IMG/VR virus record: IMGVR_UViG_3300045988_122291
Location: 1-64,000 of that record
Strand: one strand, 5' to 3'
Length of the DNA: 64,000 nt
Origin: a virus
The position numbers were made by a program, and so were the translations under genes. This document shows positions 4,511-61,459 of the stretch, in pieces. Below the pieces are notes generated by a model that was not told the origin of the DNA, did no database searches, and was given only the letters and a program-made list of their open reading frames with translations. Within the stretch, counting starts at the first letter, position 1. Each line of letters starts with the position of its first letter.

Positions 4511-5770
4511 GAACATTATTGTCCTCTCTTATGGTAACATAGGAGTAATAAATCTACTTAACTGCTGGAATATCCTTAGAGCTATATTGACTACAACGTA
4601 AGGATGAAATATGCCTAAACGTGAATGTTTGAAAACAATATAGATTGGACAATCAGCAACCAAGGCTCGAACAGAGCAAGGCTCAACGACCATCCCGTAA
4701 GGGAGTAGGGGCAAGTGCCCCGAAGTAGTAGACTTCCAGAAATGGAAGAAGATATGGTCTATTCTTCATAGAAATATGAAGGCGAAAGCAGACAAGAATA
4801 ACGAACTTGTTTACAGAATATAATAGGGAGACAGGGAGTAGCTACCTTTCTGATTTACTGCAATAATGAAGATTATCCCTATTATATATTAACTTTTTTG
4901 CAGAAAGGTTGATAAGTGATATGAAATGTTATGAAATTAAGCACAATAAGAAATTTCGATACTCTTGTATTTATTTATGGACAAATTTAATCAATAACAA
5001 AAAGTATGTAGGTCAAACACAAGACCTCGGAGAACGATTTGTTAGATATAATCAAAATGATTTTAATGATTATATGAAAAAAGCTGTAAATAAATATGGA
5101 ATAGATAATTTTGAAATAACAATTCTTGAAAAAGACGTTCCTAAAGAGAAGTTGAATGAACGAGAACAATATTGGATGGATTATTTTCAGTCTTATAATT
5201 CTGATTATGGATATAATATTTGCAAAATCGCAGGTAGCTGTCGCGGTGTAAAAAGAAGCGAAGAATATAAGCAAGCGTGTTCCGAGAGAATGCTTGATAG
5301 AATAGCTAATGGCGAAACAATTTGGCTTGGCAGAACTCATTCAAAAGAAACAAAAGAACTAATGTCTGAGAAAGCCAAGCAATTACATGAAAATTATCCT
5401 GAAATTTGGTCTAATCATCATAAATATACAGAAGAAGAAAAACAAGCAACTTCTGAATTTTTCAAAGAATATTGGAAAACTCATGAGCATTCTTGGAAGG
5501 GTAAAAATCATACACCTGAATCAAAGAAGAAAATGAGCGAAGCAATGAACAAAAACCCGAATAGGAACAGAAGAATGAGAAAAGTTGAATGTTACACTTT
5601 AGAAGGAAACTATATTTGTACTTATGTTTCCGCTTCTGAAGCTGCAAGAAGTATCGGGCATCCGAAAGGTGCTACTCCTATTCTTAGATGTGCTAAAGGC
5701 TATGAAAATTCAGCATACGGATTCAAATGGAAAGATGCTGGATTATATCACGAATCTGATAATATATAAG
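4511..5770 (+). mobile_element. group I-like intron in terL carrying a GIY-YIG homing endonuclease
   Basis: A 1,260-nt insert splits one terminase fold. Exon 1 ends in U and the insert ends in G. Joining gives ...RELYWD|YNADYIVDD... in frame. About 400 nt of stem-rich non-coding RNA (e.g. TAGAC 4729-4733 / GTCTA 4757-4761, GGGGC-AAGT-GCCCC) precedes the ORF. It shares a 37-nt block with the intron at 21351. Confidence 0.7.
4909..5769 (+). CDS. GIY-YIG homing endonuclease (I-TevI-like architecture)
   Basis: N-terminal CIYLWTN..KKYVGQT...GERF...YN...NEREQYW. Two NUMOD3-like repeats (GRTHSKETKELMSEKA, GKNHTPESKKKMSEAM). C-terminal HTH-like tail ending YGFKWK. The start may be TTG 4909 or ATG 4921. 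Confidence 0.85.
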   Translation: MISDMKCYEIKHNKKFRYSCIYLWTNLINNKKYVGQTQDLGERFVRYNQNDFNDYMKKAVNKYGIDNFEITILEKDVPKEKLNEREQYWMDYFQSYNSDYGYNICKIAGSCRGVKRSEEYKQACSERMLDRIANGETIWLGRTHSKETKELMSEKAKQLHENYPEIWSNHHKYTEEEKQATSEFFKEYWKTHEHSWKGKNHTPESKKKMSEAMNKNPNRNRRMRKVECYTLEGNYICTYVSASEAARSIGHPKGATPILRCAKGYENSAYGFKWKDAGLYHESDNI

Positions 5771-14838: not shown

Positions 14839-15405
14839 ATGTATAACAGTATGAAAGCGTTACCTCAAATTCCATATAACATTCTAACTTATTTAGCAAA
14901 AAATGATGAAATTATCTGGAAATTGTTAAAGTATAATAGTTACGATGCTTTAAGCAAACCAGACCTCACTTTTGCAGAAAAGTTAGACCTTATTTGGAAA
15001 ACTGGGGCGCAAGCAGATTATGGCATTTTTCTTACCCCCCTTGTTGAAGATGTCATAGCCGAAAGCAAGTGCATCTTGAAAATTTATGATTATTATATTC
15101 ATGCCAAAGAGTTGTATGTGGCAACACCAGTATATGCGTTTGACTTTCTATATGGTGGTCAAATGGCTTTGGTAGAATATGAGAATATTCCCGTATCTCG
15201 CGGAGATTTGTTTATTCATCGTGCTATGGCTGTACTTAATGGTGCATATGTAGCGGGTATTGGTAAATTAACTTTTAGTGATGATATGTCAAGATACAAT
15301 CTTGCCCGAAGCACCATAGGGAATAGTAAAACATTTACAGGCGTTCAACTTTATATGAGTACGCTTGTGGGCGATTCTGGTAAGGATGTTGCTTGTGGCG
15401 ATTGA
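14839..15405 (+). CDS. hypothetical tail/neck module protein
   Basis: 188-aa ORF in operon context. Confidence 0.45.
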   Translation: MYNSMKALPQIPYNILTYLAKNDEIIWKLLKYNSYDALSKPDLTFAEKLDLIWKTGAQADYGIFLTPLVEDVIAESKCILKIYDYYIHAKELYVATPVYAFDFLYGGQMALVEYENIPVSRGDLFIHRAMAVLNGAYVAGIGKLTFSDDMSRYNLARSTIGNSKTFTGVQLYMSTLVGDSGKDVACGD

Positions 15406-16228
15406 TTTACAATACCTCAAAGAAGTATATTTTGCTTACGATGAACCAGTCCCCTATAAATGTAAGGGGGGTAACACTATTAACATTATTCCTGTTGATG
15501 TAAAACATGGGCTTGTTTTTCAATCCAGTGTTGACATTATAGCATTTGACAAAAACAGTGTCAATGATGCAAAGATAATTTCTATGAGTTATCTTGAGTT
15601 TATTATTGGTATGATGGCTGAAGCGCCAGTTTTTGTTCAAAAGCTGGTTAATATTTTGAAACTTTGTTTGGGATTAGAGCATCCTGCGATAACTTTTAAC
15701 GAACAAACTAACAAACCGTTAATAGTGGATGAAGAAGCAGGAATAAAAATTACTCATAAGGAATTTGAAGATATTCGGAGAATTATTCTCTATCAGAATA
15801 TTCCAAAATATGATGATGAGTATATTAACCCAGACTTGAAAAAAGCAATGGAAGAAACTGATAGGCTAAGAAACAAAGATATTGATATGCCGACTTTTGA
15901 GCGAAAGTGTGCAATTATTACGGCTCATTGTGGTTTATCCAAGAAAGAACAGCTTGAGATGACGTTGCGTTCCCATATTATGCTTTTTGACGAAGTTTGT
16001 GGTGAAATTGAATTTACAACGGTTCGTCCCGTGGCACTTTTTGGTGGTAAGGGTAACGAACTTGAACATTGGATTTACCATAAAAAGAAGGGTAAGTTCG
16101 ATGGATATATTACAGAGAAAAACCAACTTGTTAAGCAGATGGGTGGCGAAGGTAGCTTTACCAATACATCTACTGATACGAGCCGTGGCGATTCTCTGGA
16201 ACAACTATTTATACAAGGAGGAAATTAA
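15386..16228 (+). CDS. hypothetical tail module protein
   Basis: ORF-track start 15365 (TTG) has no RBS. ATG 15386 is more plausible, but the start remains uncertain. Confidence 0.45.
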   Translation: MLLVAIDLQYLKEVYFAYDEPVPYKCKGGNTINIIPVDVKHGLVFQSSVDIIAFDKNSVNDAKIISMSYLEFIIGMMAEAPVFVQKLVNILKLCLGLEHPAITFNEQTNKPLIVDEEAGIKITHKEFEDIRRIILYQNIPKYDDEYINPDLKKAMEETDRLRNKDIDMPTFERKCAIITAHCGLSKKEQLEMTLRSHIMLFDEVCGEIEFTTVRPVALFGGKGNELEHWIYHKKKGKFDGYITEKNQLVKQMGGEGSFTNTSTDTSRGDSLEQLFIQGGN

Positions 16229-16231
16229 AGT

Positions 16232-16873
16232 ATGGCTTCTGCTAATATTTTCACCGCTGGCCCTGCTCGTGCGCTGTTTTTCTACGGTCAGGACTTGATT
16301 GGTGTTGGTACTACTCTAAGTGATACCACTTTCGATTCTTCTATCACCGCCGAGGAAGTACGCGGTGGTCAGGGCAACCTGCTCTACGGTCAATACTTCC
16401 ATGATTCTTCACTGACTGTTTCTATCACAGACGCAATGTTTAACCTTCAGTACGTTGCCGCAAACCTTGGTGTAAACCTCGAACAAGGTGGCATTTCTGT
16501 AACTGAAGAAGAGGTTGTTGTTGGCGCAGTTGGTGGCGCAGTAACACTAACTAACAAGCCAATCGCTTTCTCTGGTTCTTATATCGGTTGGTATAAGAAG
16601 CCTTCTGACGCTGACTGGTCTATCGGCACTATTGACGCTGACCAGAAGAAGATGAATATCGGTGGCGCAAAGGAAAACGAACATTATTGTGTTAAGTATT
16701 TCTATCAGAATGAGAACGCTAAGTCTATTACTATTAAGGCTCAGTTTGTTCCAAAGGTACTGCACCTTGTTCTGATTAACGACTTGTTCTCTGGTTCTAC
16801 CGCTGATGTAGCGGCTTCTACTGCTAAGTATGGTCGTCTAATTACTGATATTCCTCAGTTCCAGCTCGATGGT
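16232..16873 (+). CDS. major tail protein, exon 1
   Basis: 214 codons, strong structural-gene codon bias, located upstream of the tape measure. The frame stops 8 codons after the predicted 5' splice site (U16873). Confidence 0.6.
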
Positions 16874-17098
16874 AAAATTTTCAAGCGGTGTGCTTGAAAA
16901 TAACGCCACTTATATCAGGTGACTGGTATAAGCTCTGTGTTAAATGCTTTGAATCCCTAAAGCCTACAAAACTCAAACAGTAATTGGAAACGATAAGCTG
17001 TGTAGTTACGAAAGTAGAAAAAATTTGTAGGATATTCATAAGGTTAAATCCTAAGTGAATGTAAATGGGTCTTTAGCAGAGAAAGCCCTAAGTACATA

Positions 17099-17127
17099 TT
17101 GATTATTATTATAATATATAGTATAAT
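17099..17127 (+). promoter_or_regulatory. sigma-70-type promoter inside the intron (TTGATT-17-TATAAT)
   Basis: TTGATT 17099-17104, 17-nt spacer, TATAAT 17122-17127. Located about 100 nt upstream of the intron ORF. Confidence 0.4.
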
Positions 17128-17230
17128 ATGTATATGGGAGACTCCCAACGACTACTTCCTTGTGGGAAGGTAAGCCCAAGTGGGCTGAAAAATACAGCAC
17201 TTAATTATTCAAAAAAATATAAAAAAGAAG

Positions 17231-18073
17231 GTGATTATAATATTTGACGAAAATCAGCTTGTAGAAGTACGATGGAACTCTAATAATGTTAAGCATTTTA
17301 CTGCTTTAGGATATGAATTTACTAAACGCGGGGATACTTTTCAGGTTTTTGCGAAAGAGTTGCAAAATAGCAGTAGTTCTAAAGTAAAGTGTATTTGTGA
17401 TTATTGCGGACAAGAATTTATTACAAATTATGCTTTTTATAGAAAGAGCGTTAAACGTGGTAAATTAAGTTGTAAAAATTGCAAAAACAAGAAAATTGAA
17501 GATACCTTTATGCAAAAATATAGTGTAAAATCTGTTGGCGCTTCTGCGATTTGTCAAGAACGTGCAAAAGATACTATTGAGTGGCTTTACGGAAGTAGAT
17601 ATGCTATGCAAACTGAGCAAGGGCAAAAGCATTTCAAAGAAACCATGAAAGAACGATATGGTCATGAAAACCCTACATATTGTCCTGAGTTGGTTGAAAA
17701 AGCGCGACAGTCTATGTACGCAAATGGTACAGTTCTTTCTTCTAAGCCAGAACGTAAAATGGTTGAAATGTTAAAAGAATTGTATGGCGAACAAAATTGC
17801 ATACCTAATTTTCCAGTTGGAAACACCAATCTTGATTGTTTGCTAACGATTGGCGATATTAAGATTGACGTTGAATATGATGGAATTTATTGGCATAAAG
17901 ACAGAAAAGATTACGACCGCAAAAGGAATCATTGGCTTATAAGTCAGGGTTATAAAGTAATCAGAATTTTAGGCAATAATAGAAATACATTGCCTACACT
18001 TGAAAGACTTAAAGAAGAAGTAGATTATGTGCTGAATAATCACTCTTTAGGTTATATTGATATGAATAATTAA
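17231..18073 (+). CDS. intron-encoded Vsr/DUF559-like (PD-(D/E)XK) putative homing endonuclease
   Basis: C-terminal LDCLL...IKIDVEYDGIYWH...DRKRNHWLISQGYKVIRI matches the D...(E/D)xDGxxxH...D..R...L...G..V.R pattern of Vsr/DUF559 nucleases. Zinc-ribbon CDYCG...CKNC in the N-terminal part. The GTG start is uncertain. Confidence 0.6.
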   Translation: MIIIFDENQLVEVRWNSNNVKHFTALGYEFTKRGDTFQVFAKELQNSSSSKVKCICDYCGQEFITNYAFYRKSVKRGKLSCKNCKNKKIEDTFMQKYSVKSVGASAICQERAKDTIEWLYGSRYAMQTEQGQKHFKETMKERYGHENPTYCPELVEKARQSMYANGTVLSSKPERKMVEMLKELYGEQNCIPNFPVGNTNLDCLLTIGDIKIDVEYDGIYWHKDRKDYDRKRNHWLISQGYKVIRILGNNRNTLPTLERLKEEVDYVLNNHSLGYIDMNN

Positions 18074-18173
18074 GTTGAACATATAGTCTGCTCTCATGTG
18101 AAAGCATGAGCAGTTCATAAAAGAACGGCATAGAATTAACGACTCTATGTGAACATTAGGCGCACAAAATTTG

Positions 18174-18974: not shown

Positions 18975-19355
18975 ATGGCAGATGACATCGGTATCTTATA
19001 TCATAAGGTGAACGACCTGTCTGAACGAGTGACAGAATTAGAAAGCACCCGACCGTTTATGCAGGAAATGATAGAGAGAGAAATTAAAGTAAGTGAAAAA
19101 TTAGATGCTACTCTTGATGCTGTTCAGTTGTCTATGGTGCAAATGAACGTAAAGATGGATGAACAATCAAAAGCGATTGAAATGTTACAGAAAAATTCTG
19201 TAGAATCTAATAAGAAATTAAATAATCGACTTGATGACCTTGAAGAAAGAGGACAATTTGATTTCTTAACTTATATTAAAACAAATTTACCAACAATTAT
19301 CCTTACTGGCGTGGTTGTTGGTGCTTACGTTGCAAAACATTTTAATCTCTTGTAA
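18975..19355 (+). CDS. hypothetical coiled-coil protein with C-terminal transmembrane anchor
   Basis: 126 aa with heptad-rich centre and a C-terminal hydrophobic stretch LPTIILTGVVVGAYVA. Confidence 0.5.
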   Translation: MADDIGILYHKVNDLSERVTELESTRPFMQEMIEREIKVSEKLDATLDAVQLSMVQMNVKMDEQSKAIEMLQKNSVESNKKLNNRLDDLEERGQFDFLTYIKTNLPTIILTGVVVGAYVAKHFNLL

Positions 19356-20801: not shown

Positions 20802-21350
20802 ATGGCAGATTTTAAGATTTCTATTGATACTGAATTAAAAACTACTGGTATTGATGGTCAAGTACAAGAAATAAAGTCTAAACTTGAAAATGCTTTAAAA
20901 AACATTAAGGTGACTTTAGATACTGAAAGTGCTAAAACCGATATAAATGCCATTCTTAAATCAATTAGTGAAAAACCACAAGCGATTAAGATTACTGCTA
21001 ATGCTGATGAAGCTAAATCAGTTGTTGAAAGTCTTACTTCCGGGTTAAATAAAGAATCTACTATTAAAGTTAATGCTGATTCTTCTCAAGTAAAAGAATT
21101 AGGTAGTGCAAGTAGTGAAGCTGCTTCTCAAGTAAATAGTCTTACTGAATCTGGTGTAGCGGCTGGCGAGTCCTATGCACAGTTAATGACGACTTTTCAA
21201 CAAATGGTGCAAGTGTATCAATCTATTTCAGAGCAAGTTTTTGAAGTAGATGATGCACTCACCGAATTTAAGAAAGTATCTGACCTTAGTGGAGAATCGC
21301 TTAATCAGTATGTAAATCAATTACAAGATTTAGGTAGCACAGTAGGTCGT
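20802..21350 (+). CDS. tail tape measure protein, exon 1
   Basis: 183 codons, repetitive Ser/Thr/Lys-rich helical N-terminus. The frame stops 2 codons after the predicted splice site U21350. Confidence 0.6.
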
Positions 21351-21710
21351 ACCGGCTGATATACTAACCGGAGTGTATAGATGGTAAATATGCACTAAGA
21401 AGTGTTCAAAACCCTTGAAAGCCTAAGAGCCTTACTACCACAACATAAGGATGAGATACGCCTAAGTGTGACGGTATGGAAACTCAAAAAACAGTAAGGA
21501 TGATATATGGTGGCAACGCCTAAGTATTGATATAAATATTGTATAGTGTTGATATAGAAATATCAATAGTGTAAAGTATTTATATAAAAAATGGCAGTTT
21601 GGGCGCGAAGTCCTGATGAGGGATGTGTCAACAGAGTAAAAGTTCACTTCCCTCCAAGAATATAGGGAAAAGAAGTATTCGGGCTGTAAGAGAAATCTTA
21701 TGGAATTATC

Positions 21711-21738
21711 TTGACATTATTTAAGTGTGTGCTATAAT
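21711..21738 (+). promoter_or_regulatory. near-consensus sigma-70 promoter with extended -10 inside intron
   Basis: TTGACA 21711-21716, 16-nt spacer ending TGC, TATAAT 21733-21738. Followed by hairpin AGTATCA-gaaggaga-TGATACT that presents the SD in its loop, then ATG 21761. Confidence 0.6.
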
Positions 21739-21760
21739 AGTATCAGAAGGAGATGATACT

Positions 21761-21997
21761 ATGTTAGAATTTGTAGTAATCTTTAGTATTCTTGCTATTC
21801 TTAAAATAGCAACCACGCCGAATTTTATTTGGGGGGTATGCTTGCTTATATCTTTTGACACTTTGTTATTGACTCAAGAAGGGTGGCTAATTATTCCTTT
21901 GTTGATTAGTCTGGGAGTTTATTGCAAAGGTCGGAATAAGCGAGTTTATATGGACGAATCTTATTTTATTACACACTTTTTTAATAAATGGAAATAA
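21761..21997 (+). CDS. intron-borne small membrane protein (three predicted TM helices, basic C-tail)
   Basis: 78 aa beginning MLEFVVIFSILAILKIA, then FIWGVCLLISFDTLLL, WLIIPLLISLGVYC and KGRNKR. GAAGGAG RBS 7 nt upstream. No nuclease motifs. Confidence 0.55.
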   Translation: MLEFVVIFSILAILKIATTPNFIWGVCLLISFDTLLLTQEGWLIIPLLISLGVYCKGRNKRVYMDESYFITHFFNKWK

Positions 21998-22009
21998 TGC
22001 CAAATAACG

Positions 22010-22330
22010 TCTGAAATGCTGGACGCTACTACAGAATTTCGTAAAAATGGTTTTAATGACCAAGATGCCGCAACATTAGGCACACTTGCGGCTAAATTTC
22101 AAAATGTAAGTGATGAAGCAATCACAGCAGGAGATAGTGCATCGTTTATTATCTCTCAAATGATTGCGTTTGGCGTAGAAGCTGATAATGCGTCATCCAT
22201 TATTGATAGTGTTAACGAGGTTGCAAACCAGTTCTCGGTTTCTTCGGGCGACCTTTCTAAAGCATTGGGTAATGTTGCATCTACTGCTGGTGCAATGGGT
22301 AACTCAATGGAAGAAACCCTTGGCATGGCT
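22010..22330 (+). CDS. tail tape measure protein, exon 2
   Basis: 107 codons. TEFRKNGFNDQDAATLG...QFSVSSGDLSKALGNVASTAGAMGNSMEETLGMA is the classic tape-measure core pattern. It is cut mid-domain. Confidence 0.65.
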
Positions 22331-22586
22331 GAAATCAGGTCAAGTAAAACAGAGTGAATTGACGGGAAAGGAAATACGGCTCTACGGGGTACGATTTCAA
22401 CTGTGCAAAAGCATGGTTGCCTAAAGCCTTATACACGAACTTATCATGGTAACATAGGTAAGGGTTCGGAGTAATTAACCGAAATATCGTAAAAGAGATA
22501 AGGATATATGGTCAATCCGCAGGGAAGATACCGTTGAAATACGGTATAACCTTCATCGACTATCGAAAACAATCAAGAATTATTTC

Positions 22587-22615
22587 TTGACAAATGTAAC
22601 TATTTATGATACAAT
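22587..22615 (+). promoter_or_regulatory. consensus sigma-70 promoter with extended -10 inside intron
   Basis: TTGACA 22587-22592, 17-nt spacer ending TGA, TACAAT 22610-22615. Located 60 nt upstream of the endonuclease start. Confidence 0.6.
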
Positions 22616-22675
22616 ATGAATAGAATAAGATGATAATAAAATCATACGAAGTGAGTAGAGTAGGAGAAATCCGAA

Positions 22676-23866
22676 GTGCTCTGCGCCTATGGTGAAGATA
22701 TAGTCAATCTTATGGGAAACTATAAGGAGAATATTTGTTATATGCCTAATAAATTAAGTTATGAAGAAGCGAAGAAATCTTTTGAAGATAAAGGGCTGAT
22801 TTTATTAGATAAAGATTATATCAATGCTTCTGTTAAAATGTCTTTTATGAATTGTCAAGGTTATAAAGCTATGATGAATCTTGGAAATTTAAGAAGTGGA
22901 AAGAATCCTTGCTATTTTTCTACAACCAATCCTTATACGATTGAAAATATTCAGAAATTTATGGAATTGAAAGGGTCTAAAACAAAAATACTTTCAACAG
23001 AATTTCGTGGAGAAAAAGATAAATTATATTTCAAATGTGGAGAATGCGAAAAAATTTTTACAAGAACGTGGTTGGATTTATCAACTGCGACTTATTGTGA
23101 ATGTAAAGAATGTGGCGCAATTCTTAGAGGGGTTGGACGCAGAAATTCTATTGAAAAAACTCAAAAGAAGTTTGAAGAACACAACTTAAAATTATTAGAA
23201 GTTCCTTATGGTAATAATGACCAAATGCTTGAATGTGAAGATTCAGAAGGTTATCGAGGATTTTGTAATTTTCGTAATTTACTGAGAGGTTCTTCTATTT
23301 CAAGATTTGACAAACGTGTTAATGAGAAATATTTCTTGTATAATGTTCAACATTATGCAGATTTGAATAATTACACTTGTCAAATAGTAGGGTATGCTGA
23401 TAATCAAAAGTGGAAAAGTTGCGGTATTAAAGTTCAATGTGAGTGTGGAAATAAATTTGATACTTCTCTTAATGCTTTTCGTTTAGGCAAATTTAGATGT
23501 GCTCATTGTGCAAAAAGCATATCTGCTTATGAAGCATTTGTTAAAAATTGGCTTGACAAACACGAAATCTCTTATATTCAACAGCAATGTTTTGAAGGAT
23601 GTAAAGATAAAATCGCTTTGCCGTTTGATTTTTACTTCCCTTCTAAAAATATGGTGATTGAAGTGGATGGACAAGGGCATTATTTTGTAGCAAATTTTAA
23701 CCAATGTTCAAATGAGCAAGCTAAAATTTCCTATGAGTTAACAACAAAACATGATAAAATAAAAGACAAATTTTGCAAAGACAATAATATAACTATTATT
23801 CGTATTCCTTATTGGGATATGGATAATAAAAAATATTTAGATATATTAACAAATATTTTCAAATAA
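22676..23866 (+). CDS. intron-encoded PD-(D/E)XK-type putative homing endonuclease with zinc-ribbon DNA-binding repeats
   Basis: C-terminal LPFDFYFPSKNMVIEVDGQGHY...DKIKDKFC..NNITIIRIPYWD (D..ExDG..H...D..K..I.RI). Two repeats of about 60 aa (F.....L.LL...Y.......G......N L..G). Zinc ribbons CGECEK...CKECG and CECGN...CAHC. GTG start 9 nt after TAGGAG. Confidence 0.6.
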   Translation: MLCAYGEDIVNLMGNYKENICYMPNKLSYEEAKKSFEDKGLILLDKDYINASVKMSFMNCQGYKAMMNLGNLRSGKNPCYFSTTNPYTIENIQKFMELKGSKTKILSTEFRGEKDKLYFKCGECEKIFTRTWLDLSTATYCECKECGAILRGVGRRNSIEKTQKKFEEHNLKLLEVPYGNNDQMLECEDSEGYRGFCNFRNLLRGSSISRFDKRVNEKYFLYNVQHYADLNNYTCQIVGYADNQKWKSCGIKVQCECGNKFDTSLNAFRLGKFRCAHCAKSISAYEAFVKNWLDKHEISYIQQQCFEGCKDKIALPFDFYFPSKNMVIEVDGQGHYFVANFNQCSNEQAKISYELTTKHDKIKDKFCKDNNITIIRIPYWDMDNKKYLDILTNIFK

Positions 23867-23872
23867 TATGTG

Positions 23873-26800
23873 GTTACAGCCATTACCGAGCAAACTCGTA
23901 ATGCAAGTAAGGCTTCGAGAAGCCTTAATACAATTTTTAGTCGCTTATCTCAAGTGACCGATGAAAATAGTGATACTGGTAAAAAATTAACTGATATTTA
24001 TGACGGATTGAATATTGCCCTTTATGATAGCGAAGGGCAAATGCGTAGTTCTTATGATATTCTTTCCGATTTGTCTACAAAATGGGATTCTCTTTCCAAA
24101 AATCAACAGAACTACATTGCCCTAACTTCAGCGGGTAGCAATCAGCTTAATGCTTTCCTTGCTCTCATGAATAACTTTGGTCATGCGACTGAAGCGACTG
24201 AAACAGCGATAAATTCTGCTGGCTCGGCAACCAAAGAGAATGAGCGTTATATGGAAAGTTTGCAAGCGCAAGTTCAAGCTCTTAAAGCGGAGTTCCAAGA
24301 ATTTGCAACAAACATTCTTTCTTCTGACCTTGTTAAGGGATTTTTACAAGCAGGTACATCTATTCTTAAATTTGCTAATACGGATTTAGGTCAAGCCATT
24401 TCTAAAATTTTACTATTTAATTTAACAGTAAATGGCATTAGTGGTATACTTGACTTGTTTGGCGCAAACATATCAAAAGTATTAAATCCCATGGGTGGAT
24501 TGAATACTATTTTTGAGAAAGCGTCAGAAATATTCGTCAAATTTACTTCTGGTGCAACCGAAGCGGGTGCTGCTTCTTCTGGATTGGGAGGGATTATTTC
24601 TCAACTTGGGAGTTCTTTTTCTGGATTGAGTAGTGGAGCAAGCACAAGTGTTTCTGCTATCAAAAATATTGTTGGCGCAATTTCTGCACTTCCTTTACCT
24701 GTTAAAATAGCTGTCGCCGCAATAGCGGGGCTTATTGCAATTTACAATAAACTTCATGTATCAGATAAAGAATTAACACAATCTATTGCAGATAAAGAAA
24801 CCACTATAAACAATACAAAGTCTCAGATTGATGAATATAATTCTACTCTTGAATCTAATAAGCAAAGAATCGAAGAAATCAACAGCGTAAAAGGAACGTC
24901 TGATTGGAACAGTTCACTTCAAACTGAAGCCGATACTCTTGAGCATCAAAACCAACTTATCGAACGTCAAATTCAACTTCAAGAGCAAAAATTAAAAATA
25001 GAGCAAGCAGCTCTTTGGAAAGACCAATCTGAACAATTTGAACGTACCTATGGCGAAAAAATGCGCTATACTACAAAGCAACAAAATGTTCGTGGTGAAC
25101 AAGTATCGGTTACTCTTACAGGTGAGGATGCCTACAAGAAAAAACTTAGTGACTTACAAGTAACTATTCACAAGTTTACGCAAACCCAGAATCTTGACTT
25201 TAAGGATGCTGCTGTTGAAGCAGAAGATTCTATTGTAAGTATTATTACAGAACTTGAAGATTACAAATCTGCCGCTGAAGCCGCAGGCGATACCACAAAA
25301 GCTAAATATATTCAATCTTTGATTGATATGGCTGAAGCCGCCGATTCTGTAGATGGCGGTACTATTAAAGAAGTTCTCGAAAGCACTGCTGATGGTGAAG
25401 CAAGCGTTGAAGAACAAACTTCTAAACTTGTTTCTAAGCTAAAAGAATTGGGCGATATTTCTATTAAGCCTAAAGATGCAGATTCTATGCAAGAATGGCT
25501 TGAGAGTCTTGATTCATCTCAAGTAGAAAAGCTCAATTCTTTGATAGACGATTTAGGTAATCGTTCTGATTGGTTAGCGGCTCAAATCAGCAATATGTCT
25601 GGGGCTGAAGCCGTTTCTTACATTGACGAAGTATTTCGTAGATTAAGTGGCGATATTAGAAGTGCGGGAGAAGCATATTCTGATTTTGAAAACGCTTTAA
25701 ATACAGATTATTCTGCACCATTAAAAGAAGTTTATGAGATGATGGATTACATCACTCAGTCTACTGAAAATGGTATTACTAATCTTAAAGCATATAATGC
25801 TTCTTTGCAAGGAATTTATGGCACAACAGATAAAAATATTATTAAAATCACCGAGCAAAATGCGGCAATGTCTGACTTCCGTAACGTTGCTCAAGAAGCA
25901 GCGGAAGGTCAAGCAACTCTTGTTGGCAATATCGAACAATATTTTTCTGACGGCGTATTCCAAGGCGACCTTCTTCTTGACCGCTTAAAAGAACTTAGCA
26001 CTTCTGCTACCGCCATTAGTAAGTATGGTAAACTTCTTGATTTTCAAGAATTTGATGACGGCACATTCCAAATCGCAATCAATGATTTTAGCAAATTGTC
26101 TGAAGTTCTTGGACTCAGCGACCCTGTTCTAAAGAGCTTTATGGATAGTCTCGGTGGTACTGTCGATTTTCAAATGGGTGATACCATTGACGCAGTAACG
26201 ACTACCATTCAGAATTTACATGAAGCGATAAGTGCTACTGGTACTGGTAGTATTAGTGCCATTGCAAATGAAATAAAGCAACTTCAATCTGTTGGCGAAG
26301 TTGATATTCGCACAGACCGCTTGCAAGAACTTCAAACACAGTTAAATGGTTTAAGTAAATACACCAATATGACCTTTGACTATGATTTTAGTAGTCTTAC
26401 AGGAGGAGAGTTGGACGTTGCCAGTGATGAGCTTACGGGTTTTGCTACAGCTTTGCAGAACCTTACTACCGAGTCTGGGGACTGGGATTTACAAGGTCTC
26501 GTAGACAGTGTTAATAGCGCTCTTGGAGATGAAGCCATCACACTTGACGGTGACGAAATTACTTTTAATACAGACGAAGCGGTATCGGCTTTTCAATCTC
26601 AACTTTCTGAAGCGTTTGGAGGTATGGACTATTCTGATATAATTGGTTCTGATGCCGGACAAACGATTATATCTAACTTGTTTGAAGGTGTCACCGTTGA
26701 TGCTTCTGCTGCCGAAGGTGTTGGTCAAGAATTTGCTGATGCAATTAAAACTTCAGTAGAAACTAAACTTAATACCACTCAAATTACCATTAATGGTGTA

Positions 26801-29365
26801 GGTGCTGAAGTAGCTTCTGATATGGGTCTTGCTATTCAAGGCATGAACGACTATGAATCAGCGACCAAAAACGCTCAAACCGCCTCTCAAAATTTGAATG
26901 GTGTAAATCTAAGCGGTATTCAAAGCGGTATTAAAAAGACGGGAGATAATGCTAATACTGCTCAAGGACAAGTAGACAGCTTATATAATTCCGCTTCTAA
27001 ATTAGACCACACTTTTACTGCAAAATTCAAAGCAGATACAACACAGTGGAAATTACCAACTATTCCATTAGGATATACACAATCAGGTACAACCGCTGTT
27101 GGTCAAACTCCTGCTTATGCAAGCGGATTACAAGGTACGCAGCCTATGCGTGCTCAATCAAGCGGAATGTCTCTTGTTGGTGAAGAAGGCGCTGAGTTCC
27201 GTATTACCAAGGACGGTAAAAAAGAACTCGTTGGTGAAAATGGCGCAGAGTTTGTAAAAGTAAACAAAGGCGATACTATTATTCCCGCTGATGCAACAGA
27301 AATGATTCGCAAAGGTGAGCTTAATGGATATGATGGTGGTTTGCGTGGTAGAACTACTGCAAGTGGTACTGGTGTCGCGAACGCAAGTCATGATGTTAAA
27401 ATAGGTGATATTACCAGTCGTTATACTGGTGAAAAAATTGCTTCTATTTCTAAAGCCACAAAAGCTACTTCTTCAAATACTAAGGCAACCAATTCTAATA
27501 CTTCTGCAAAGTCCGCAAACGCTTCTGCAAGTGCTAAAGCTACTGAAGCAACAGATGAATTAACAGATGCACAGAAAAAGCAGAAAGATGCCTTTGAAGA
27601 AGCCAACGATGTAACTGAGCATCATATTTTCCTTGCTGAAAAGAATGGCGCTTCTTATGAAAAGCTCATTAAGATGAATCGTGACTATCAAAAGCAGATT
27701 CAACAGCAAGCTGACTGGTGGCGTAGTCAAGGTTATGACAATGATTTAGAAGAAATTCGCAAATTACAAAAACTTTGGTGGCAAGTAGAAGATGACATAA
27801 CTTCTTATCAGAAGAAAGCTTTTGATGAACGTTATCAAGAATCTAAAGATTATATTGATGACCGCAATGACCTTGAAGATTGGGGCGCTGACTCTGAGAT
27901 TGAAGCATGGCATCGTGTAGAAACATGGATGGACGAATGGTATAAGAATGGACTTATTTCTTATGACTATTATCTTGAAAAGCGTAAAGAAGCTACAAAG
28001 AAAGCCGCCGAAGCAGAGAAAAAAGCGTGGAAAGAAGCCAAAGAAGCGGAGAAAAAACGTCTTGAAGATTGGCAAGATGTTTATGAGGACTTGTTTGACC
28101 TTGTAGCTGATAAGGCACAAGACGAAATCGACAAACTGGAAGAACAACGTGATACAGTTGAAAAATATTGGGACGATAAAATTGATGCGCTTGAAAAGGC
28201 GAACGATGAACTTGATGACCAGATTGAAAAGGAAGAAGCACTTGATGCTTTGGCTCGTGCTCGTTCCACTAAAGTTATGGTTTATCAAGATGGACGATTC
28301 CAATATATCAATGACGCGGATGAAGTTTCTGAAGCTAAAGCTAATCTTGATAAAATCGAACGTGACCAAGCGCTTGAAAGAGAAAAAGAAAATCTCGAAA
28401 AGCAAAAAGAAGCCGCTCTAAAAGCTATTGATGACCAGATTGATGCTTGGGAAAAGTATAAAGATGAATGGTCTAACGTTGTTTCTGAATATGAGAAAGA
28501 ACAAAAACGTCTTAATGTTCTTCAAAAACTTGGTGTTGACCTTGAAGCAGAAAACTGGAAAGAACGTCTTGGTAATCTTGAAGATTATGTTTCTCAATAT
28601 AAGAAATATATGCAAGAACTTACCAAAATTAACGCCGAACTTGAAGCAGAAAAAGATATTACTGTGGATTCCAACAAAGTATCTTCGGGTGCTTCTGCTG
28701 GTGGCGCAATCGGTTCAGTCATAGGCACTGCTACAGGAGGTATTCTTGGCGGTGTAATCGGAACGATTATTGGTACTGCTACAGGTGCGCTTAAAGGAAC
28801 GAGTAGTGGTAAGGGTTCTTCAAGTAAGGGAAGTTCTTCTTCAAGTAGTAGTAATAGTGTAATTAGTTCCGATAAAGGATATACTATCACTACAAATAAG
28901 GGTACAAGTTTTGTTAATAGTGCACCATCGGGTTCTACAATGACTGGTGGTGATGGCTCTAAGTGGACTAAGAACAAAGATGGTTCTACTACTATTAAAA
29001 CAAAAGACGGAACAACCCACACAGTTAAAGCGACTACAAAGCGTGCTTCTGGTACAAAGTATGCGCCTCGTGGTATAGCTCTTACAGGCGAAGAAGGTGC
29101 TGAACTTCAAGTTCTGAATCAAGGCGATGGCATTATTCCACACGACTTAACTTCTAATCTTTGGGAGTGGGGCGAAACTAAACCGAGTGATATTGTTTCT
29201 GCGTTCGCTGGTATTCAAAAAGACCAATCTGGTGTGACAATTTGCATAGAAAACTTCAATCCTTCTCTACCCAATGTTGTGGATGGTGAAGGTTTTGCTA
29301 ATTATCTCAAGAATAATTTCTGGCGTAATGTTATTCAGTATAAAACAACTATGGGGAGGGCGTGA
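23873..29365 (+). CDS. tail tape measure protein, exon 3
   Basis: 1,830 codons. Continues the tape-measure core (TRNASKASRSLNTIFSRLSQ). Long coiled coils, a Gly/Ser-rich hydrophobic patch, and two LVGEEGAE/LTGEEGAE...GD.IIP motifs typical of tape-measure C-termini. The joined protein is about 2,120 aa. Confidence 0.85.
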   Translation, partial: VTAITEQTRNASKASRSLNTIFSRLSQVTDENSDTGKKLTDIYDGLNIALYDSEGQMRSSYDILSDLSTKWDSLSKNQQNYIALTSAGSNQLNAFLALMNNFGHATEATETAINSAGSATKENERYMESLQAQVQALKAEFQEFATNILSSDLVKGFLQAGTSILKFANTDLGQAISKILLFNLTVNGISGILDLFGANISKVLNPMGGLNTIFEKASEIFVKFTSGATEAGAASSGLGGIISQLGSSFSGLSSGASTSVSAIKNIVGAISALPLPVKIAVAAIAGLIAIYNKLHVSDKELTQSIADKETTINNTKSQIDEYNSTLESNKQRIEEINSVKGTSDWNSSLQTEADTLEHQNQLIERQIQLQEQKLKIEQAALWKDQSEQFERTYGEKMRYTTKQQNVRGEQVSVTLTGEDAYKKKLSDLQVTIHKFTQTQNLDFKDAAVEAEDSIVSIITELEDYKSAAEAAGDTTKAKYIQSLIDMAEAADSVDGGTIKEVLESTADGEASVEEQTSKLVSKLKELGDISIKPKDADSMQEWLESLDSSQVEKLNSLIDDLGNRSDWLAAQISNMSGAEAVSYIDEVFRRLSGDIRSAGEAYSDFENALNTDYSAPLKEVYEMMDYITQSTENGITNLKAYNASLQGIYGTTDKNIIKITEQNAAMSDFRNVAQEAAEGQATLVGNIEQYFSDGVFQGDLLLDRLKELSTSATAISKYGKLLDFQEFDDGTFQIAINDFSKLSEVLGLSDPVLKSFMDSLGGTVDFQMGDTIDAVTTTIQNLHEAISATGTGSISAIANEIKQLQSVGEVDIRTDRLQELQTQLNGLSKYTNMTFDYDFSSLTGGELDVASDELTGFATALQNLTTESGDWDLQGLVDSVNSALGDEAITLDGDEITFNTDEAVSAFQSQLSEAFGGMDYSDIIGSDAGQTIISNLFEGVTVDASAAEGVGQEFADAIKTSVETKLNTTQITINGVGAEVASDMGLAIQGMNDYESATKNAQTASQNLNGVNLSGIQSGIKKTGDNANTAQGQVDSLYNSASKLDHTFTAKFKADTTQWKLPTIPLGYTQSGTTAVGQTPAYASGLQGTQPMRAQSSGMSLVGEEGAEFRITKDGKKELVGENGAEFVKVNKGDTIIPADATEMIRKGELNGYDGGLRGRTTASGTGVANASHDVKIGDITSRYTGEKIASISKATKATSSNTKATNSNTSAKSANASASAKATEATDELTDAQKKQKDAFEEANDVTEHHIFLAEKNGASYEKLIKMNRDYQKQIQQQADWWRSQGYDNDLEEIRKLQKLWWQVEDDITSYQKKAFDERYQESKDYIDDRNDLEDWGADSEIEAWHRVETWMDEWYKNGLISYDYYLEKRKEATKKAAEAEKKAWKEAKEAEKKRLEDWQDVYEDLFDLVADKAQDEIDKLEEQRDTVEKYWDDKIDALEKANDELDDQIEKEEALDALARARSTKVMVYQDGRFQYINDADEVSEAKANLDKIERDQALEREKENLEKQKEAALKAIDDQIDAWEKYKDEWSNVVSEYEKEQKRLNVLQKLGVDLEAENWKERLGNLEDYVSQYKKYMQELTKINAELEAEKDITVDSNKVSSGASAGGAIGSVIGTATGGILGGVIGTIIGTATGALKGTSSGKGSSSKGSSSSSSSNSVISSDKGYTITTNKGTSFVNSAPSGSTMTGGDGSKWTKNKDGSTTIKTKDGTTHTVKATTKRASGTKYAPRGIALTGEEGAELQVLNQGDGIIPHDLTSNLWEWGETKPSDIVSAFAGIQKDQSGVTICIENFNPSLPNVVDGEGFANYLKNNFWRNVIQYKTTMGRA

Positions 29366-46326: not shown

Positions 46327-47147
46327 CAAGGGAATTATATCCCTTAGACTATATCATAATTGTTTGGTCAATTCTTCGCGCTTCCATAGCAAGAATTGCA
46401 CTTGCTATGTACTCTACTCGGTTACTTTCTGATACAACCCAAATTACATATCAGATACCCTTTTGATAGTCGTTTAACATACATATTCAAATTTGTAATT
46501 ATCAAAATAATTAGGACTTAGTTCGCCTTTTAGCACTCGCGCAATTTTGTGCCTATCCATATGTAAGCACCTACCAGCTTCACGAATAGAAGTGAAATTT
46601 TGCACATTGCCTTCTTTGTCAATAGCGCGAACAGCCGTGTTGTTTTTATGTGTTCTATTGCCACTATCCCAACCATGTTGTACATTATAAGCATTAGTAC
46701 ACCATTCAAGGTTTCCAAGACGGTTGTCTGTTTTATCAGAATTGATATGGTTAACGTACTTATAATTATTAGGATTTGGAATGAAACAATGCGCTAAGAT
46801 AACATGAACTCGTTCATGTACAAAAGTGTGGTCAGGTAAACTACGCATTACTTGTATATATCCATCACTGCCTTTATGTGGGGCGACTTGATTACCTGTA
46901 CGAGAGTTATAAAAGTTAAAATTTTCATCTACCAAAAATCCGTTGTATTCTTTATATTGCATTTTATCACCTTCTTTCGTATAAAATTATTTGAATATGC
47001 TTAGCACAGCGATTATTTCATACTTTTGTATGAACCTTCCCTGTTAGCAGAGATATTAACAAACCATTTCCTGTTTGAACTTACGTTATCTCCACACCAT
47101 ATATTTATATGTTCACGAAGTTTTACATGGGCTATCGTGTCATTTCA
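46327..47147 (-). mobile_element. group I-like intron in nrdD carrying an HNH homing endonuclease
   Basis: An 821-nt insert that splits M-G|C-R. Exon 1 ends in U (47148) and the insert ends in G (46327). The in-frame stop TGA forms the first 3 nt of the insert. Structured flanks of about 185 nt (5') and 147 nt (3'). Confidence 0.7.
46474..46962 (-). CDS. HNH homing endonuclease (NUMOD4 + HNH_3 type)
   Basis: N-terminal YKEYNGFLVDENFNFYNSRTG. HNH region VNHINSDKTDNRLGNLEWCTNAYNVQHG. C-terminal FTSIREAGRCLHMDRHKI HTH-like segment. Confidence 0.8.
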   Translation of the reverse strand: MQYKEYNGFLVDENFNFYNSRTGNQVAPHKGSDGYIQVMRSLPDHTFVHERVHVILAHCFIPNPNNYKYVNHINSDKTDNRLGNLEWCTNAYNVQHGWDSGNRTHKNNTAVRAIDKEGNVQNFTSIREAGRCLHMDRHKIARVLKGELSPNYFDNYKFEYVC

Positions 47148-59900: not shown

Positions 59901-60864
59901 GCTTAATTTCAAATTCTGGAATCTTAGGCAATGCAGGTACACGAGTAGTCTTTTTAATGGTAATAGGCTGAACCTTGTCAGCAATCTGATTAGTCGTGTC
60001 AAACAATACGTCAATCATTTCGTCATTAAAACCACTTACATACATTTGTTCTCTAAGTTCTTGCGGAGTAAACAGATAGGTGGTCTGATAGAACTTCTCA
60101 GGTTCACGAGAATCACCGCCGTCTTTAGACTTTAGAAAAGCTGTGTGAATCTTTCTATCTTCTAGACGCATGAAATGAGAATCAGTAGTAACAATAATAG
60201 GAATGTTTAACTGTTCATGCAACTTCCACAATGAATTGTTGACCGTAATCTGTTCTTCGTTATCTTCCCAGCAAGGCTGACATTCAAGATAGAAATTATC
60301 CTTGCCAAACGTTCGCCAATTCCACTGAATAAATTCTTTAGCTTTAGCCGTATTGCCAGTAAGAATACACTTAGGCAAGAACCCGCCGATACATCCTGTG
60401 CTAACAGCCAAATGACCCTTGTCTTTGCCTACGACTTCTTCAAAGTCTGAGTAGAAACTTGGTCTACGCAACTGACCTTTATAAGTATAGCTTCTAAGCC
60501 ATGCTCTTGCAGATAATTCATACATTTGCTTTAGACCAATCTCATCCAATACAATTACCAAATAATGCCAATAGTATGGACGGTCGTTTTCACTAAAACG
60601 TAGATTATCTTCTTCTTCTGATAGTAGATAGAACTCATTGGCAAAGATATGCTGAAATGGACGCTGTTTGTCCAAAGCATTATATGCTTTTTCAAGTTCT
60701 ACATATCCACTTACAGTTTGGTGGTCTGAAATAGCATAACCTCTCAGACCATTTTCATAGCACCAGTTTACACATTTAGGGATATTACAAATAGCGTCAG
60801 CAAAACGAAGAACAGCGGAACTGTATTCACTGTGATTGTGTAGTGAAGTATATGTGTTAATCAT
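56935..60864 (-). CDS. dnaE: DNA polymerase III alpha subunit (DnaE-type, N-terminal PHP domain)
   Basis: 1,309 aa. The PHP start SLHNHSEYS sits at residue 7, followed by DHQTVSG. Size and layout are typical of C-family replicative polymerases. Uninterrupted ORF. Confidence 0.8.
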   Translation of the reverse strand: MINTYTSLHNHSEYSSAVLRFADAICNIPKCVNWCYENGLRGYAISDHQTVSGYVELEKAYNALDKQRPFQHIFANEFYLLSEEEDNLRFSENDRPYYWHYLVIVLDEIGLKQMYELSARAWLRSYTYKGQLRRPSFYSDFEEVVGKDKGHLAVSTGCIGGFLPKCILTGNTAKAKEFIQWNWRTFGKDNFYLECQPCWEDNEEQITVNNSLWKLHEQLNIPIIVTTDSHFMRLEDRKIHTAFLKSKDGGDSREPEKFYQTTYLFTPQELREQMYVSGFNDEMIDVLFDTTNQIADKVQPITIKKTTRVPALPKIPEFEIKHYYKDYYDKFPFVKYYATEGTLNERYYYYQVEKGLYEYNNIHPVNIKEYLAQINIEMEQVKGLGEAFDGECMADYFTVVQKVVDLIWTEGDSYVGIGRGSAGCYLTNKLLNITGIDPMLPETKEFYPWWRFCSIARSESIFDCDIDIQSFKKERIIQAIKDYFGWRRTCQCVTWGRLSAKTALERAATGLGISSDTVGYIKSLIPTVRGSIYSLKDCLYGNEKKGRAPVPEFVAEVKKYDDLLETALAFEGMIVSSGVHAGALNVLQGDYTETGSYMVSSNGAVCSQFNLHDAEYAGDLKFDLLSIDCLQTIRTCMELLLKNGKIEDKGSLRDTYNYYLSYDKLDKTTKEMWDLLPTMASAFQYDSKAGKEALRKIGAQNLTELTLANGLMRLAVADGEQPMDMYVRYRKNINEWYQDMTNYGIPQEEQEILKELLGNYCGLMIAQSTMMSVLMDERVCNFNLKESDKARKAVAKKNAEALAETEERLYRKGAECGRTKAFLDYLWKVQIEMSKSYAFDFSHSNEYSTECLQELNLYYKFPKIYWNAAVVITQAGVEDERDNVANTTDYGKIAGSVYKAKENGIAVAPPPANHAEMSFGVDEANNTILFGLGGISSINAEIAQQIIANRPYTSFRDFYTRNSYQGTLITPSKFIQLIKAGCFDEFCPDRMRVMQAYFALSTPRKQTLTTANLAELQRIGCKLPNTLIMPLAFKKYVCSKQFLYGTHPKFKSKKIYWLDERALVFFDSMCRSQLEENVDWWYDEEGRTLVVDKSLEKLFKNVTEELKAYINQPEFLKMYNEQSIKARMRDKLPNMNVNHWSFEALSYYSNEHELTCIDADRYNVTTFDKLPTEPVFVTKKYGKREWRQYQLSRIMGTVIARNDAHSTITVLDSNNNVVQARFDNHSYPFYKAQFSEQHADGTKTVMDTSWFTRGQGLVLTGYRSEDTFRVKSYKNSIFPHKLQKILTINEDDGTMELQSYRYGYEPKEE

Positions 60865-61381
60865 AATATTTTAGTCCTCTTTCTTGCCATTCTTTAGGCA
60901 TTTTAGTAACCTTGTTAAGCCAACGCCAAACTGTTGGTGGATTCATATTGTTGTGCTGTTGACAAAATTCTGGTAGCGAACGATAAATTATGCCATCACA
61001 AATAATGGATTTTTGAATATGAGTTGTTTTAACGTCCTTTCGACCTTTTGCGATACGATGACAATGCTGTGGCGTATTGTTGTTTTCTACACTGGTTGTC
61101 CAATACAAATTATCAGCGCAATTATTTGTTCTTGTTTCGTCTTTATGCCCTACTTGCGGAAGATGGTCAGGGTTAGGGATAAACGCTTCAGCAACAATAC
61201 GATGCAACAGACAAAGTTTTGTTTTTCCGTAATTGCAACGTGCCAATCTTAAACTTACATACTGATTATTTCCAATATAGGTGGACATAATTTTGTTTGT
61301 AAATAAACTCTTAACTCTACCAAGATTGCTTACTTGATAGAATCCTTCATAACCTACAACGTCTTTCCAAATTTCTTCCAA
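60857..61381 (-). CDS. free-standing HNH homing endonuclease (NUMOD4 + HNH_3)
   Basis: Start moved to the TTG 8 nt after AAGGAGG, giving (M)EEIWKDVVGYEGFYQVSNLGRVKS, a canonical NUMOD4 start. HNH region VGHKDETRTNNCADNLYWTTSVEN. The 3' end overlaps the dnaE start by 8 nt. Confidence 0.75.
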   Translation of the reverse strand: MEEIWKDVVGYEGFYQVSNLGRVKSLFTNKIMSTYIGNNQYVSLRLARCNYGKTKLCLLHRIVAEAFIPNPDHLPQVGHKDETRTNNCADNLYWTTSVENNNTPQHCHRIAKGRKDVKTTHIQKSIICDGIIYRSLPEFCQQHNNMNPPTVWRWLNKVTKMPKEWQERGLKYYD

Positions 61382-61400
61382 TATCAACCCCTCCTTAAAA

Positions 61401-61459
61401 CAAAAATGGGAATAGCTTTTAACTACTCCCATTCTATCACATATCTATTCACTTGTCAA
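61401..61459 (-). promoter_or_regulatory. promoter abutting a terminator-like hairpin upstream of the HNH gene
   Basis: Minus strand: TTGACA (61459-61454), 17-nt spacer ending TGA, TAGAAT (61436-61431). Then a 9-bp hairpin (61431-61423 / 61415-61407, one G-U), then T5 and AAGGAGG. Confidence 0.5.

Follow-up and report, generated by a model that had tools for sequence, protein, structure and literature searches.

Group I introns of bacteria and their phages have been described as either lacking an open reading frame (ORF) or encoding a nuclease (PMC3984707). In phage T4 the intron ORFs have their own promoter, and the transcripts that start there lack the 5′ arm of a hairpin which masks the ribosome-binding region in the read-through pre-mRNA (PMC2988022). 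For I-TevI it has been shown experimentally that this control limits translation to promoter-proximal transcripts and shields splicing from ribosomes (PMC2988022). Here we describe an intron of similar build in the tape-measure gene of a large siphophage, located within a 64,000-nucleotide (nt) stretch of viral DNA (IMG/VR record IMGVR_UViG_3300045988_122291, positions 1 to 64,000, from a 114-kb contig; hereafter the window). As in T4, a phage protein gene is interrupted by a group I intron that has an internal, self-promoted ORF and, as read here from the sequence alone, hairpin control. However, the cargo is a predicted membrane protein of 78 amino acids (aa) rather than a GIY-YIG or HNH nuclease, and its promoter follows the host sigma-A consensus instead of being a T4 middle or late promoter. 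The window intron also differs in its large P5 extension and C.A splice-site pair, in that no P7.1/P7.2 was identified in our model, and in that there is no evidence of homing. In the T4 nrdD (sunY) intron the ORF comes after the catalytic core and well away from the 3′ splice site; the window cargo likewise occupies the 3′ tail, past P9 and ahead of the terminal G.

The exclusion protein gp15 of HK97, a small protein of the inner membrane whose gene stands beside the tape-measure gene and has its own promoter, blocks genome entry in a manner depending on the tail of the incoming phage (PMC3594210). The window cargo is also a predicted membrane-protein gene with a putative promoter of its own within the late tail operon, at the tape-measure gene. 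The gp15 gene, by contrast, lies between genes and comes with a terminator of its own; its product is a YebO family member expressed from the prophage of a temperate coliphage, whereas the window cargo has no evident homology, terminator or lysogeny. The fungal mitochondrial mL2449 group I intron encodes ribosomal protein S3. Both it and the window intron would be group I introns retained as carriers of a useful non-nuclease protein, although mL2449 is an organellar ribosomal RNA intron whose cargo is a ribosomal protein and which lacks a promoter of its own.

On balance, we hold with moderate confidence that a group I intron has become fixed in the tape-measure gene of a ~100-kb gut Lachnospiraceae siphophage lineage, with a membrane-protein gene in the place of a homing endonuclease; that its product is an independently expressed membrane effector is our more tentative proposal. 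Its closest relatives in culture, Enterocloster bolteae phages of ~100 kb such as PMBT24, have tape-measure proteins 48-52% identical to that of the window, and PMBT24 is described as virulent (PMC11035940). No near DNA match to the window was found among GenBank phages, and two scans of species-representative genomes returned no relatives; a Lachnospiraceae metagenome-assembled genome holds one orthologue of the 78-aa ORF. Related metagenomic and viral loci used for comparison are labelled with L-numbers (L001, L017, L024 and so on), and all features are on the plus strand unless stated.

Split tape-measure gene and ribozyme fold

Comparison with intron-less homologues and covariation of the RNA indicate that what interrupts the tape-measure gene is a true group I intron. 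Exon 1 (20802..21356), delimited by its ORF and by alignment to the intron-less PMBT24 and L024 genes, ends ...GGU CGU ACC GGC. The intron of 653 nt (21357..22009) starts UGAUAU, with an in-frame UGA stop, and ends ...AAUAACG, the terminal G being at 22009. Exon 2 (22010..22327) begins SEMLDATTEFRKNGF and is followed by a nuclease-bearing intron 2 (~22328-23872) and by exon 3, from ~23873. The Pfam PhageMin_Tail profile is split over the three pieces of the gene, with the ORF at 22016-22357 covering positions 20-125 and the ORF at 23870-29365 positions 122-196. Intron-less tape-measure proteins align over the junction without a gap (PMBT24 VARTADEMVEA and L024 VARTGSEMVEA against VGRTG/SEMLDA in the window, the slash marking the junction), as does the BCPST protein (...GRTG/SEML...). 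In L024 there is no insertion at this codon and the protein reads ARTGSEMVEA straight through. Splicing would join ...GGC (21356) to UCU (22010) to give ...VGRTG-SEMLDA....

The initial annotation, made from the sequence of the window without database searches, had placed the start of the intron at 21351, which appears to be off by 6 nt. The 5′ boundary is most likely at 21357, with splicing after GGC. A 5′ splice site after U21350 (U.G with G21373; P10 UCUG/CGGA) was rejected because G21373-G21375, which it needs for P1, belong to the covarying P2, and because homologous introns splice at the position equivalent to 21356. The U21350 site would also remove Thr-Gly (TG), which is conserved in intron-less homologues. 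The placement of the junction also draws on the homologous splice site of L017-type introns, ACCGGU/. In distant orthologues an exon end ACCGGU pairs with a guide GCCGGU, giving a U.G at the splice site, an intron-terminal G and a spliced RTG/SEM. In the window clade ACCGGC is paired with ACCGGA, so that a C.A pair stands in place of U.G. A G directly precedes UC(U/A)GA(A/G)AUG in the orthologues listed, and the L023 junction reads ...AACCG/UCAGAGAUGG.

The fold is our own P1-P9 model, drawn from a 14-sequence alignment (416 columns, 74 pairs), in which the ribozyme takes up the first 345 nt of the intron. All canonical helices and joining segments could be assigned, namely P1, P2, P3, J3/4 (AAAA), P4, J4/5 (AAA), P5, P6, J6/7, P7, P8, J8/7 and P9. 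Paired cells reached 92% in this model against 35-46% when the 3′ partners were slid, and 33 pairs had changed on both sides against 4-8 in the slid controls. None of 500 shuffles reached the observed value on four of five measures; for further pair types, 83 of 500 did so. Moreover, the ribozyme part is near-invariant among seven close relatives, whereas synonymous divergence (dS) in the adjoining ORF is 0.3-1.6.

The last 6 nt of exon 1, ACCGGC (21351-21356), form the 5′ strand of P1, and its 3′ strand is the internal guide sequence ACCGGA (21367..21372), which sets A21367 opposite C21356 where distant relatives have the U.G wobble. This splice-site pair (9/27 of the alignment) is U.G in seven sequences, the distant orthologues, and C/A in the seven of the window clade. 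Mutational work on group I ribozymes indicates that a C.A wobble can replace U.G. At P1 pair 6/30 a C-G to U-A change occurs twice, and L013 shows a compensatory C-G to U-A change within P1. P2 (GUGUAUA/UAUGCAC, 21373..21395) has a 9-nt loop, GAUGGUAAA, and six of its eight pairs are changed on both sides. The loop (21380-21388) is invariant in 14 of 14 aligned introns and could pair with the 5′ strand of P5a (UUACUA, UUAUCA or UUGCCA), tolerating the observed changes, which may represent a tertiary contact or an alternative pairing.

P3 (GUGUUC/GUUCAC, 21402-07 and 21642-47) covaries between lineages (CAGCCC/GGGCUG, UUGUAC/GUACAG). It encloses, in the model, P4 (CCCUUG/UUUGGG, 21412-17 and 21598-603), P5 (GCC/GGC, 21421-23 and 21593-95, with a G-C to A-U change) and P6 (21604-21627, two pairs changed on both sides). 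A hammerhead-like CUGAUGA at 21613-21619 was dismissed, being the loop region of P6. The large P5 extension (21424-21592) contains a receptor hairpin of the form UAUGG..GCAA..CCUAAG with a GNRA loop (21506-21524), plus a variable AU-rich hairpin. P7, C(A)GAGUA/UAUUCG (21632-38 and 21676-81), forms the pseudoknot and has a bulged A; in L021 it is the Tetrahymena C(A)GACUA/UAGUCG. P8 is UUCCCU/AGGGAA (21648-21669). Between it and the 3′ strand of P7, J8/7 reads AAGAAG, and in L022 AAGAAAUAGUCC, which we take to be the classical 'S' element. P9 (GUAAGA-GAAA-UCUUAU, 21686-21701) shows compensatory changes in L012, L002 and L020-22. P10 shows a compensatory swap, with exon UCAGA and guide UCUGA in L017 but exon UCUGA and guide UCAGA in L022; in the window clade the P10 guide is lost.

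That loss, the lack of the U.G wobble in the same clade and the lack of an Rfam intron match would fit an insertion that is never spliced, with another role for the conserved RNA and a tape-measure protein produced in separate polypeptides (genes in pieces). Moreover, exon 2 starts ..SEM.., and its AUG is taken as a start by gene callers. We nevertheless regard this as very improbable, given a canonical core with covariation in every helix, the P7 pseudoknot, the 'S' element of J8/7 and the terminal G. Relatives have U.G plus a compensated P10, and no Shine-Dalgarno sequence precedes the AUG of exon 2.

Membrane-protein gene, promoter and hairpin

The gene within the intron (21761..21997) encodes a small protein of 78 aa and ends 12 nt before the 3′ splice site with its terminal G. 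Eight orthologue clusters were found; in seven, the closest ones, the ORF has 78 aa, and in the eighth, the most divergent, it has 73 aa. In every contig fetched the ORF lies between tape-measure exon 1 and the remainder of the gene. The mean pairwise ratio of nonsynonymous to synonymous divergence (dN/dS) is 0.13 (21 pairs), at a dS which amounts to near-saturated synonymous change. Variable sites fall 29/17/48 on the three codon positions, and 26 residues are invariant, several of them polar ones inside hydrophobic helices. The GC content of the ORF is not distinctive (0.32, against 0.34-0.42 in the flanking exons). Judged by these substitution patterns, the 78-aa ORF is a real gene under purifying selection. 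Together with the split gene and the covariation of the group I fold, this agrees with the central proposal of the initial annotation, that the first tape-measure intron carries a self-promoted membrane-protein gene instead of a nuclease.

Hydropathy and a low-confidence AlphaFold model (pLDDT, the predicted local distance difference test, of 62, too low for a fold search) place three hydrophobic helices at residues 2-18, 22-37 and 41-59. They are followed by the basic segment KGRNKR, by a fourth, amphipathic helix and by an aromatic/acidic tail, YMDESYFITHFFNKWK. The three helices and the KGRNKR segment had been recognised in the initial annotation. The predicted topology is N-out, C-in, with a C-terminus that would be cytoplasmic by the positive-inside rule.

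The absence of a nuclease gene, which had also been claimed, was borne out by Pfam, PHROGs, PADLOC and tblastn. In particular, five nuclease ORFs from the phage and its relatives, searched by tblastn against the 3′ part of the intron, returned noise only (best E 0.09). The initial annotation had named a poorly conserved reading frame and recognisable nuclease remnants as observations that would count against it; the frame proved to be conserved and remnants to be absent. The same data bear on the idea that the ORF is a meaningless or decaying remnant, such as a former nuclease gene, and that only the ribozyme and promoter matter. An ancestral nuclease cassette is plausible, in that sister introns of the same phage carry nuclease genes behind similar promoters. 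However, the dN/dS, the near-constant ORF length, the invariant residues and the lack of nuclease similarity in any frame, together with the presence of hydrophobic ORFs in 56 of 56 related introns (see below), largely refute this idea, and we give it next to no credence.

Directly after P9 lies a predicted sigma-A-type promoter, TTGACA-16-TGcTATAAT (21711..21738; -35 box 21711-21716, -10 box 21733-21738). It was reported as near-consensus by the initial annotation and is a perfect 12/12 match, the only one between 16 and 30 kb of the window. Two perfect matches occur in the 64 kb against 0.05 expected, and 0 of 100 shuffles reached two. The other, TTGACA-17-TGcTATAAT at 15536-15564 on the minus strand, is antisense in the late structural operon, within the ORF at 15365-16228. 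Among the orthologous intron promoters that were read the -35 box is invariant and the extended -10 (TGn) is present in all but L002. The promoter segment is the only part of the intron with a blastn match in GenBank phages; positions 21711-21745 share 92% identity over 35 nt with the Bacillus cereus phages BPS13, BPS10C, BCPG1 and others, which probably reflects a shared promoter consensus.

The promoter runs into a putative regulatory hairpin of 9 bp (21737..21762; RNAfold -10.3 kcal/mol, z-score -3.2), in which AUAGUAUCA (21737-21745) pairs with UGAUACUAU (21754-21762) around the loop GAAGGAGA. The final two bases of the -10 box also belong to the 5′ arm, the Shine-Dalgarno sequence GAAGGAG (21746-52) is displayed in the loop, and the 3′ arm ends on the A and U of the AUG start codon. 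The loop is therefore as first described, but the stem is longer than the 7 bp then given. The hairpin design is kept in six of the eight lineages folded and is built from different sequence in L001, L002, L020, L023 and L016. A dual-start motif of the holin/antiholin kind in the L017 and L022 types was dropped, since usable Shine-Dalgarno spacing exists at the second AUG only.

The placement of the promoter fits T4-type control, in that a transcript from it would start past the 5′ arm of the hairpin. Host RNA polymerase would initiate at ~21744-21747, and the internal transcript, without that arm, would leave the Shine-Dalgarno sequence and AUG free, so that production of the protein would not depend on late expression of the tape-measure gene. 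In the long pre-mRNA made late, the hairpin would form and damp translation; ribosomes would therefore spare the last 250 nt of the intron and leave 3′ splice-site selection undisturbed. The product would reside in the cytoplasmic membrane, N-out/C-in, with its basic and aromatic/acidic tail in the cytoplasm. The cargo had been called unusual on first inspection, which is apt for the membrane gene, but not for the device of promoter plus hairpin, a known T4 design (PMC2988022).

Related introns and other insertions

More distant tape-measure genes in IMG/VR (50-72% identity) contain a homologous insertion at the identical codon. The introns of these other clades carry, in the equivalent position, different small hydrophobic ORFs (61-82 aa; one or two transmembrane helices plus a charged tail) behind a similar TTGACA/TGnTATAAT-like promoter and mostly with a hairpin of the same design. 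With a profile of the other-clade ORFs, 272 proteins were recovered (E <= 1), their contigs reaching 130 kb in length, and in seven of seven sampled loci the ORF was found ~20 nt upstream of the main tape-measure ORF. Viral contigs were also scanned for the P6 motif as an exact pattern, which returned 56 contigs. In all 56, a promoter match was present together with one, two or three hydrophobic ORFs in tandem (58-110 aa), ending just before the 3′ splice site; a nuclease ORF in that intron was found in 0 of the 56.

Acidic/aromatic motifs are shared at the extreme C-termini of these proteins (YDNEWGYIK, INEWGLDDDWRWGKL, ENFGTIDYWEDK, QYDDWGFIE). Comparison by hhalign gave no link between the 78-aa family of the window and the larger other-clade family, the tail YMDESYFITHFFNKWK being only loosely similar. 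The cargo, which amounts to several hundred proteins in this intron family, diversifies rapidly and multiplies in tandem. Three tandem ORFs were seen in L054, L061 and L066, and two or three in L069, L070, L091 and L023, with an additional hydrophobic mini-ORF of 26-28 aa in L023 and L069. The tandem membrane ORFs overlap (ATGA or TAATG), and some are paralogues with a common C-terminal YDNxWG motif.

A closer look at L019 (2886-3975) revealed twin introns, in which a membrane-ORF intron is followed by a mini-exon of ~20 nt (SEMVE..) and by a second intron with a 272-aa PD-(D/E)xK-type nuclease ORF. By this sequence, nucleases do invade the tape-measure region, but not the membrane-ORF intron.

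The window covers the structural and replication region of the phage. Its replication genes include a PolIII-alpha-like polymerase, NrdD, a dUTPase and a RecD-like helicase, and the structural genes of related contigs match the SPbeta Yom families (YomX, YomW, the YomU tube and YomN). Insertions are unusually abundant in this phage. The tube gene (16873-18158) is split by an element with a DUF559/PD-(D/E)xK-type ORF (17231-18073), a GIY-YIG ORF (4909-5769) follows or splits TerL (4538-5770), and nrdD (~46330-47144, minus strand) is split by an HNH/I-HmuI-like ORF (46474-46962). A free-standing HNH gene lies at 60857-61432, and tape-measure intron 2 carries an ORF of 396 aa. Against the intron-less L001, the junctions of the tube insertion are GATGG/TAAAAT...CATTAGG/CGCAC (16868-16880 and 18150-18165) and those of tape-measure intron 2 are ATGG/CTGAAA...ATGTGG/TTACAG (22320-22335 and 23865-23880). 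For both of these insertions a 5′ U plus a terminal G is attainable only if the spliced product gains a codon.

Role of the cargo

We tentatively suggest, by analogy, that the cargo acts as a membrane effector, expressed through host polymerase either constitutively or at an early stage of infection, which may block the entry of competitor genomes or take over a function of the host envelope. Such a block of genome entry would presumably be akin to the action of HK97 gp15 and T4 Imm. A more elaborate version, which we consider doubtful, is that the intron family has swapped homing for cargo. Here one to three fast-evolving membrane proteins with a shared cytoplasmic C-terminal motif would block tape-measure-mediated entry of rivals; they would be locked genetically in the gene for the protein that they discriminate, and intron, cargo and target would co-evolve as a result.

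The architecture would also suit a holin, or a holin/antiholin set, that times lysis, with the intron kept since its loss would remove an essential lysis gene. The 78-aa protein has the generic features of a holin, being small with predicted transmembrane helices and a charged C-terminus, and its layout is that of a class I holin (three helices, N-out, C-in, with a charged cytoplasmic C-tail). Class I holins, PMBT24 Hol44 included, are of about 80-100 aa with three transmembrane helices and a charged C-tail, and Hol44 is encoded in a tail-gene cluster, upstream of the tape-measure gene. In intron-less PMBT24, Hol44 (PF16079, E 1e-16) lies in the tail module right after a gene for a coiled-coil and transmembrane protein; the window retains a gene of this kind (18975-19355) but without Hol44. 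The product of the retained gene, 126 aa long, combines a coiled coil with a transmembrane anchor at its C-terminus; it is a homologue of the product of the PMBT24 'macoilin' gene that immediately precedes Hol44, and its architecture is XhlA-like. No holin or endolysin was recognised in the 64 kb, so far as Pfam and PHROGs detect them, as the initial annotation had also observed. The occurrence of cargo in all intron copies and the tandem sets of two or three small membrane ORFs point in the same direction. In Bacillus phage SPP1, lysis functions can be in early transcription units (PMC6316719), which likewise counts for a holin.

Several observations speak against lysis as the function. The cargo matches no holin family in Pfam or PHROGs, has no sequence similarity to Hol44 and, unlike class I holins and Hol44, is not adjacent to an endolysin and has an independent sigma-A promoter. 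That promoter, perfect as it is, implies expression from the start of infection, and the hairpin would damp translation off late transcripts. The strongly conserved extreme C-terminal motifs (YDNEWGYIK and others) suggest that a particular partner is bound, whereas the tails of holins tend to be no more than charged. Moreover, the window also lacks the PMBT24 lysin at the syntenic position, and therefore a different, complete lysis cassette may lie in the other 50 kb of the contig; a search for PMBT24-type lysins in viral contigs found them in close PMBT24 relatives only. We regard a holin as unlikely, though it is the foremost competitor to the exclusion or takeover role. The initial description of the protein as holin-like or superinfection-exclusion-like stands in respect of its architecture, but no homology to either class was found.

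Another reading is that of a selfish module resembling type I toxins, which would penalise loss or silencing of the intron and so offset the missing homing nuclease; the strong promoter and the restraint that the 5′ hairpin would place on translation count in its favour. BsrG and YonT (SPbeta-like type I toxins) and SPO1 gp56 (early host-takeover) are small, hydrophobic, membrane-acting proteins with strong host-type promoters. In its size, hydrophobic N-terminus and charged tail the cargo resembles, to our eye, the toxins BsrG and YonT of SPbeta-type prophages. It differs from all three in that neither homology nor an antisense RNA was found, and in the longer, motif-bearing cytoplasmic tails of the cargo proteins. 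No convincing antisense promoter exists in or after the ORF (the best minus-strand matches are 9-10/12 and poorly placed), although this is a weak test. At 58-110 aa and with conserved C-terminal motifs, the cargo proteins are longer and more elaborate than typical toxins, and on a lytic phage genome there would be little point in an addiction module. We therefore consider a toxin-like module improbable.

A number of points weigh against a self-splicing intron with an independently expressed effector, or against its proposed role in exclusion. No intron match was obtained from Rfam (including RF00028) at the gathering threshold or at E <= 10 with the whole window, 8 kb or 400 nt as query, a miss that we ascribe to the large P5 insertion and the 3′ ORF, and the fold rests on our own model. 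With C.A for U.G and the P10 guide lost, the efficiency of splicing in the window clade is uncertain. The sigma-A consensus is a match of sequence only, the hairpin leaves the Shine-Dalgarno sequence in its loop, and it is weak or unclear in L021 and L022. The 78-aa ORF has no family match in Pfam, PHROGs or PADLOC, and a profile search of 1.84 billion representative proteins recovered its own clade only, plus one repeat artefact (P0009). Cargo is present in every intron copy seen, which suits an essential function such as that of a holin better than an accessory one. Lastly, the initial annotation had framed the gene as a moron. A promoter of its own is present and conserved, but no terminator was found after the ORF, unlike in classical morons, and since PMBT24 is virulent (PMC11035940) a lysogenic role is weakened and expression from a prophage doubtful.

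Phage group I introns with a self-promoted ORF and hairpin control are known, and the element described here is of this kind. What is new is the cargo, a small membrane-protein cassette under selection, and not a nuclease, across a broad family of gut phages. Also of note are the natural C.A splice-site variant of the window clade and a family of introns missed by the Rfam group I model. If the cargo is expressed as predicted, introns can spread or stabilise accessory genes inside essential late genes, and an intron may be retained by virtue of its cargo rather than by homing. Human-gut phages would then hold a sizeable new family of membrane proteins, testable as exclusion factors, holins or host-takeover proteins. 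Should the cargo prove to act against rival phages, group I introns would be vehicles for accessory 'weapon' genes, and not for nucleases alone.

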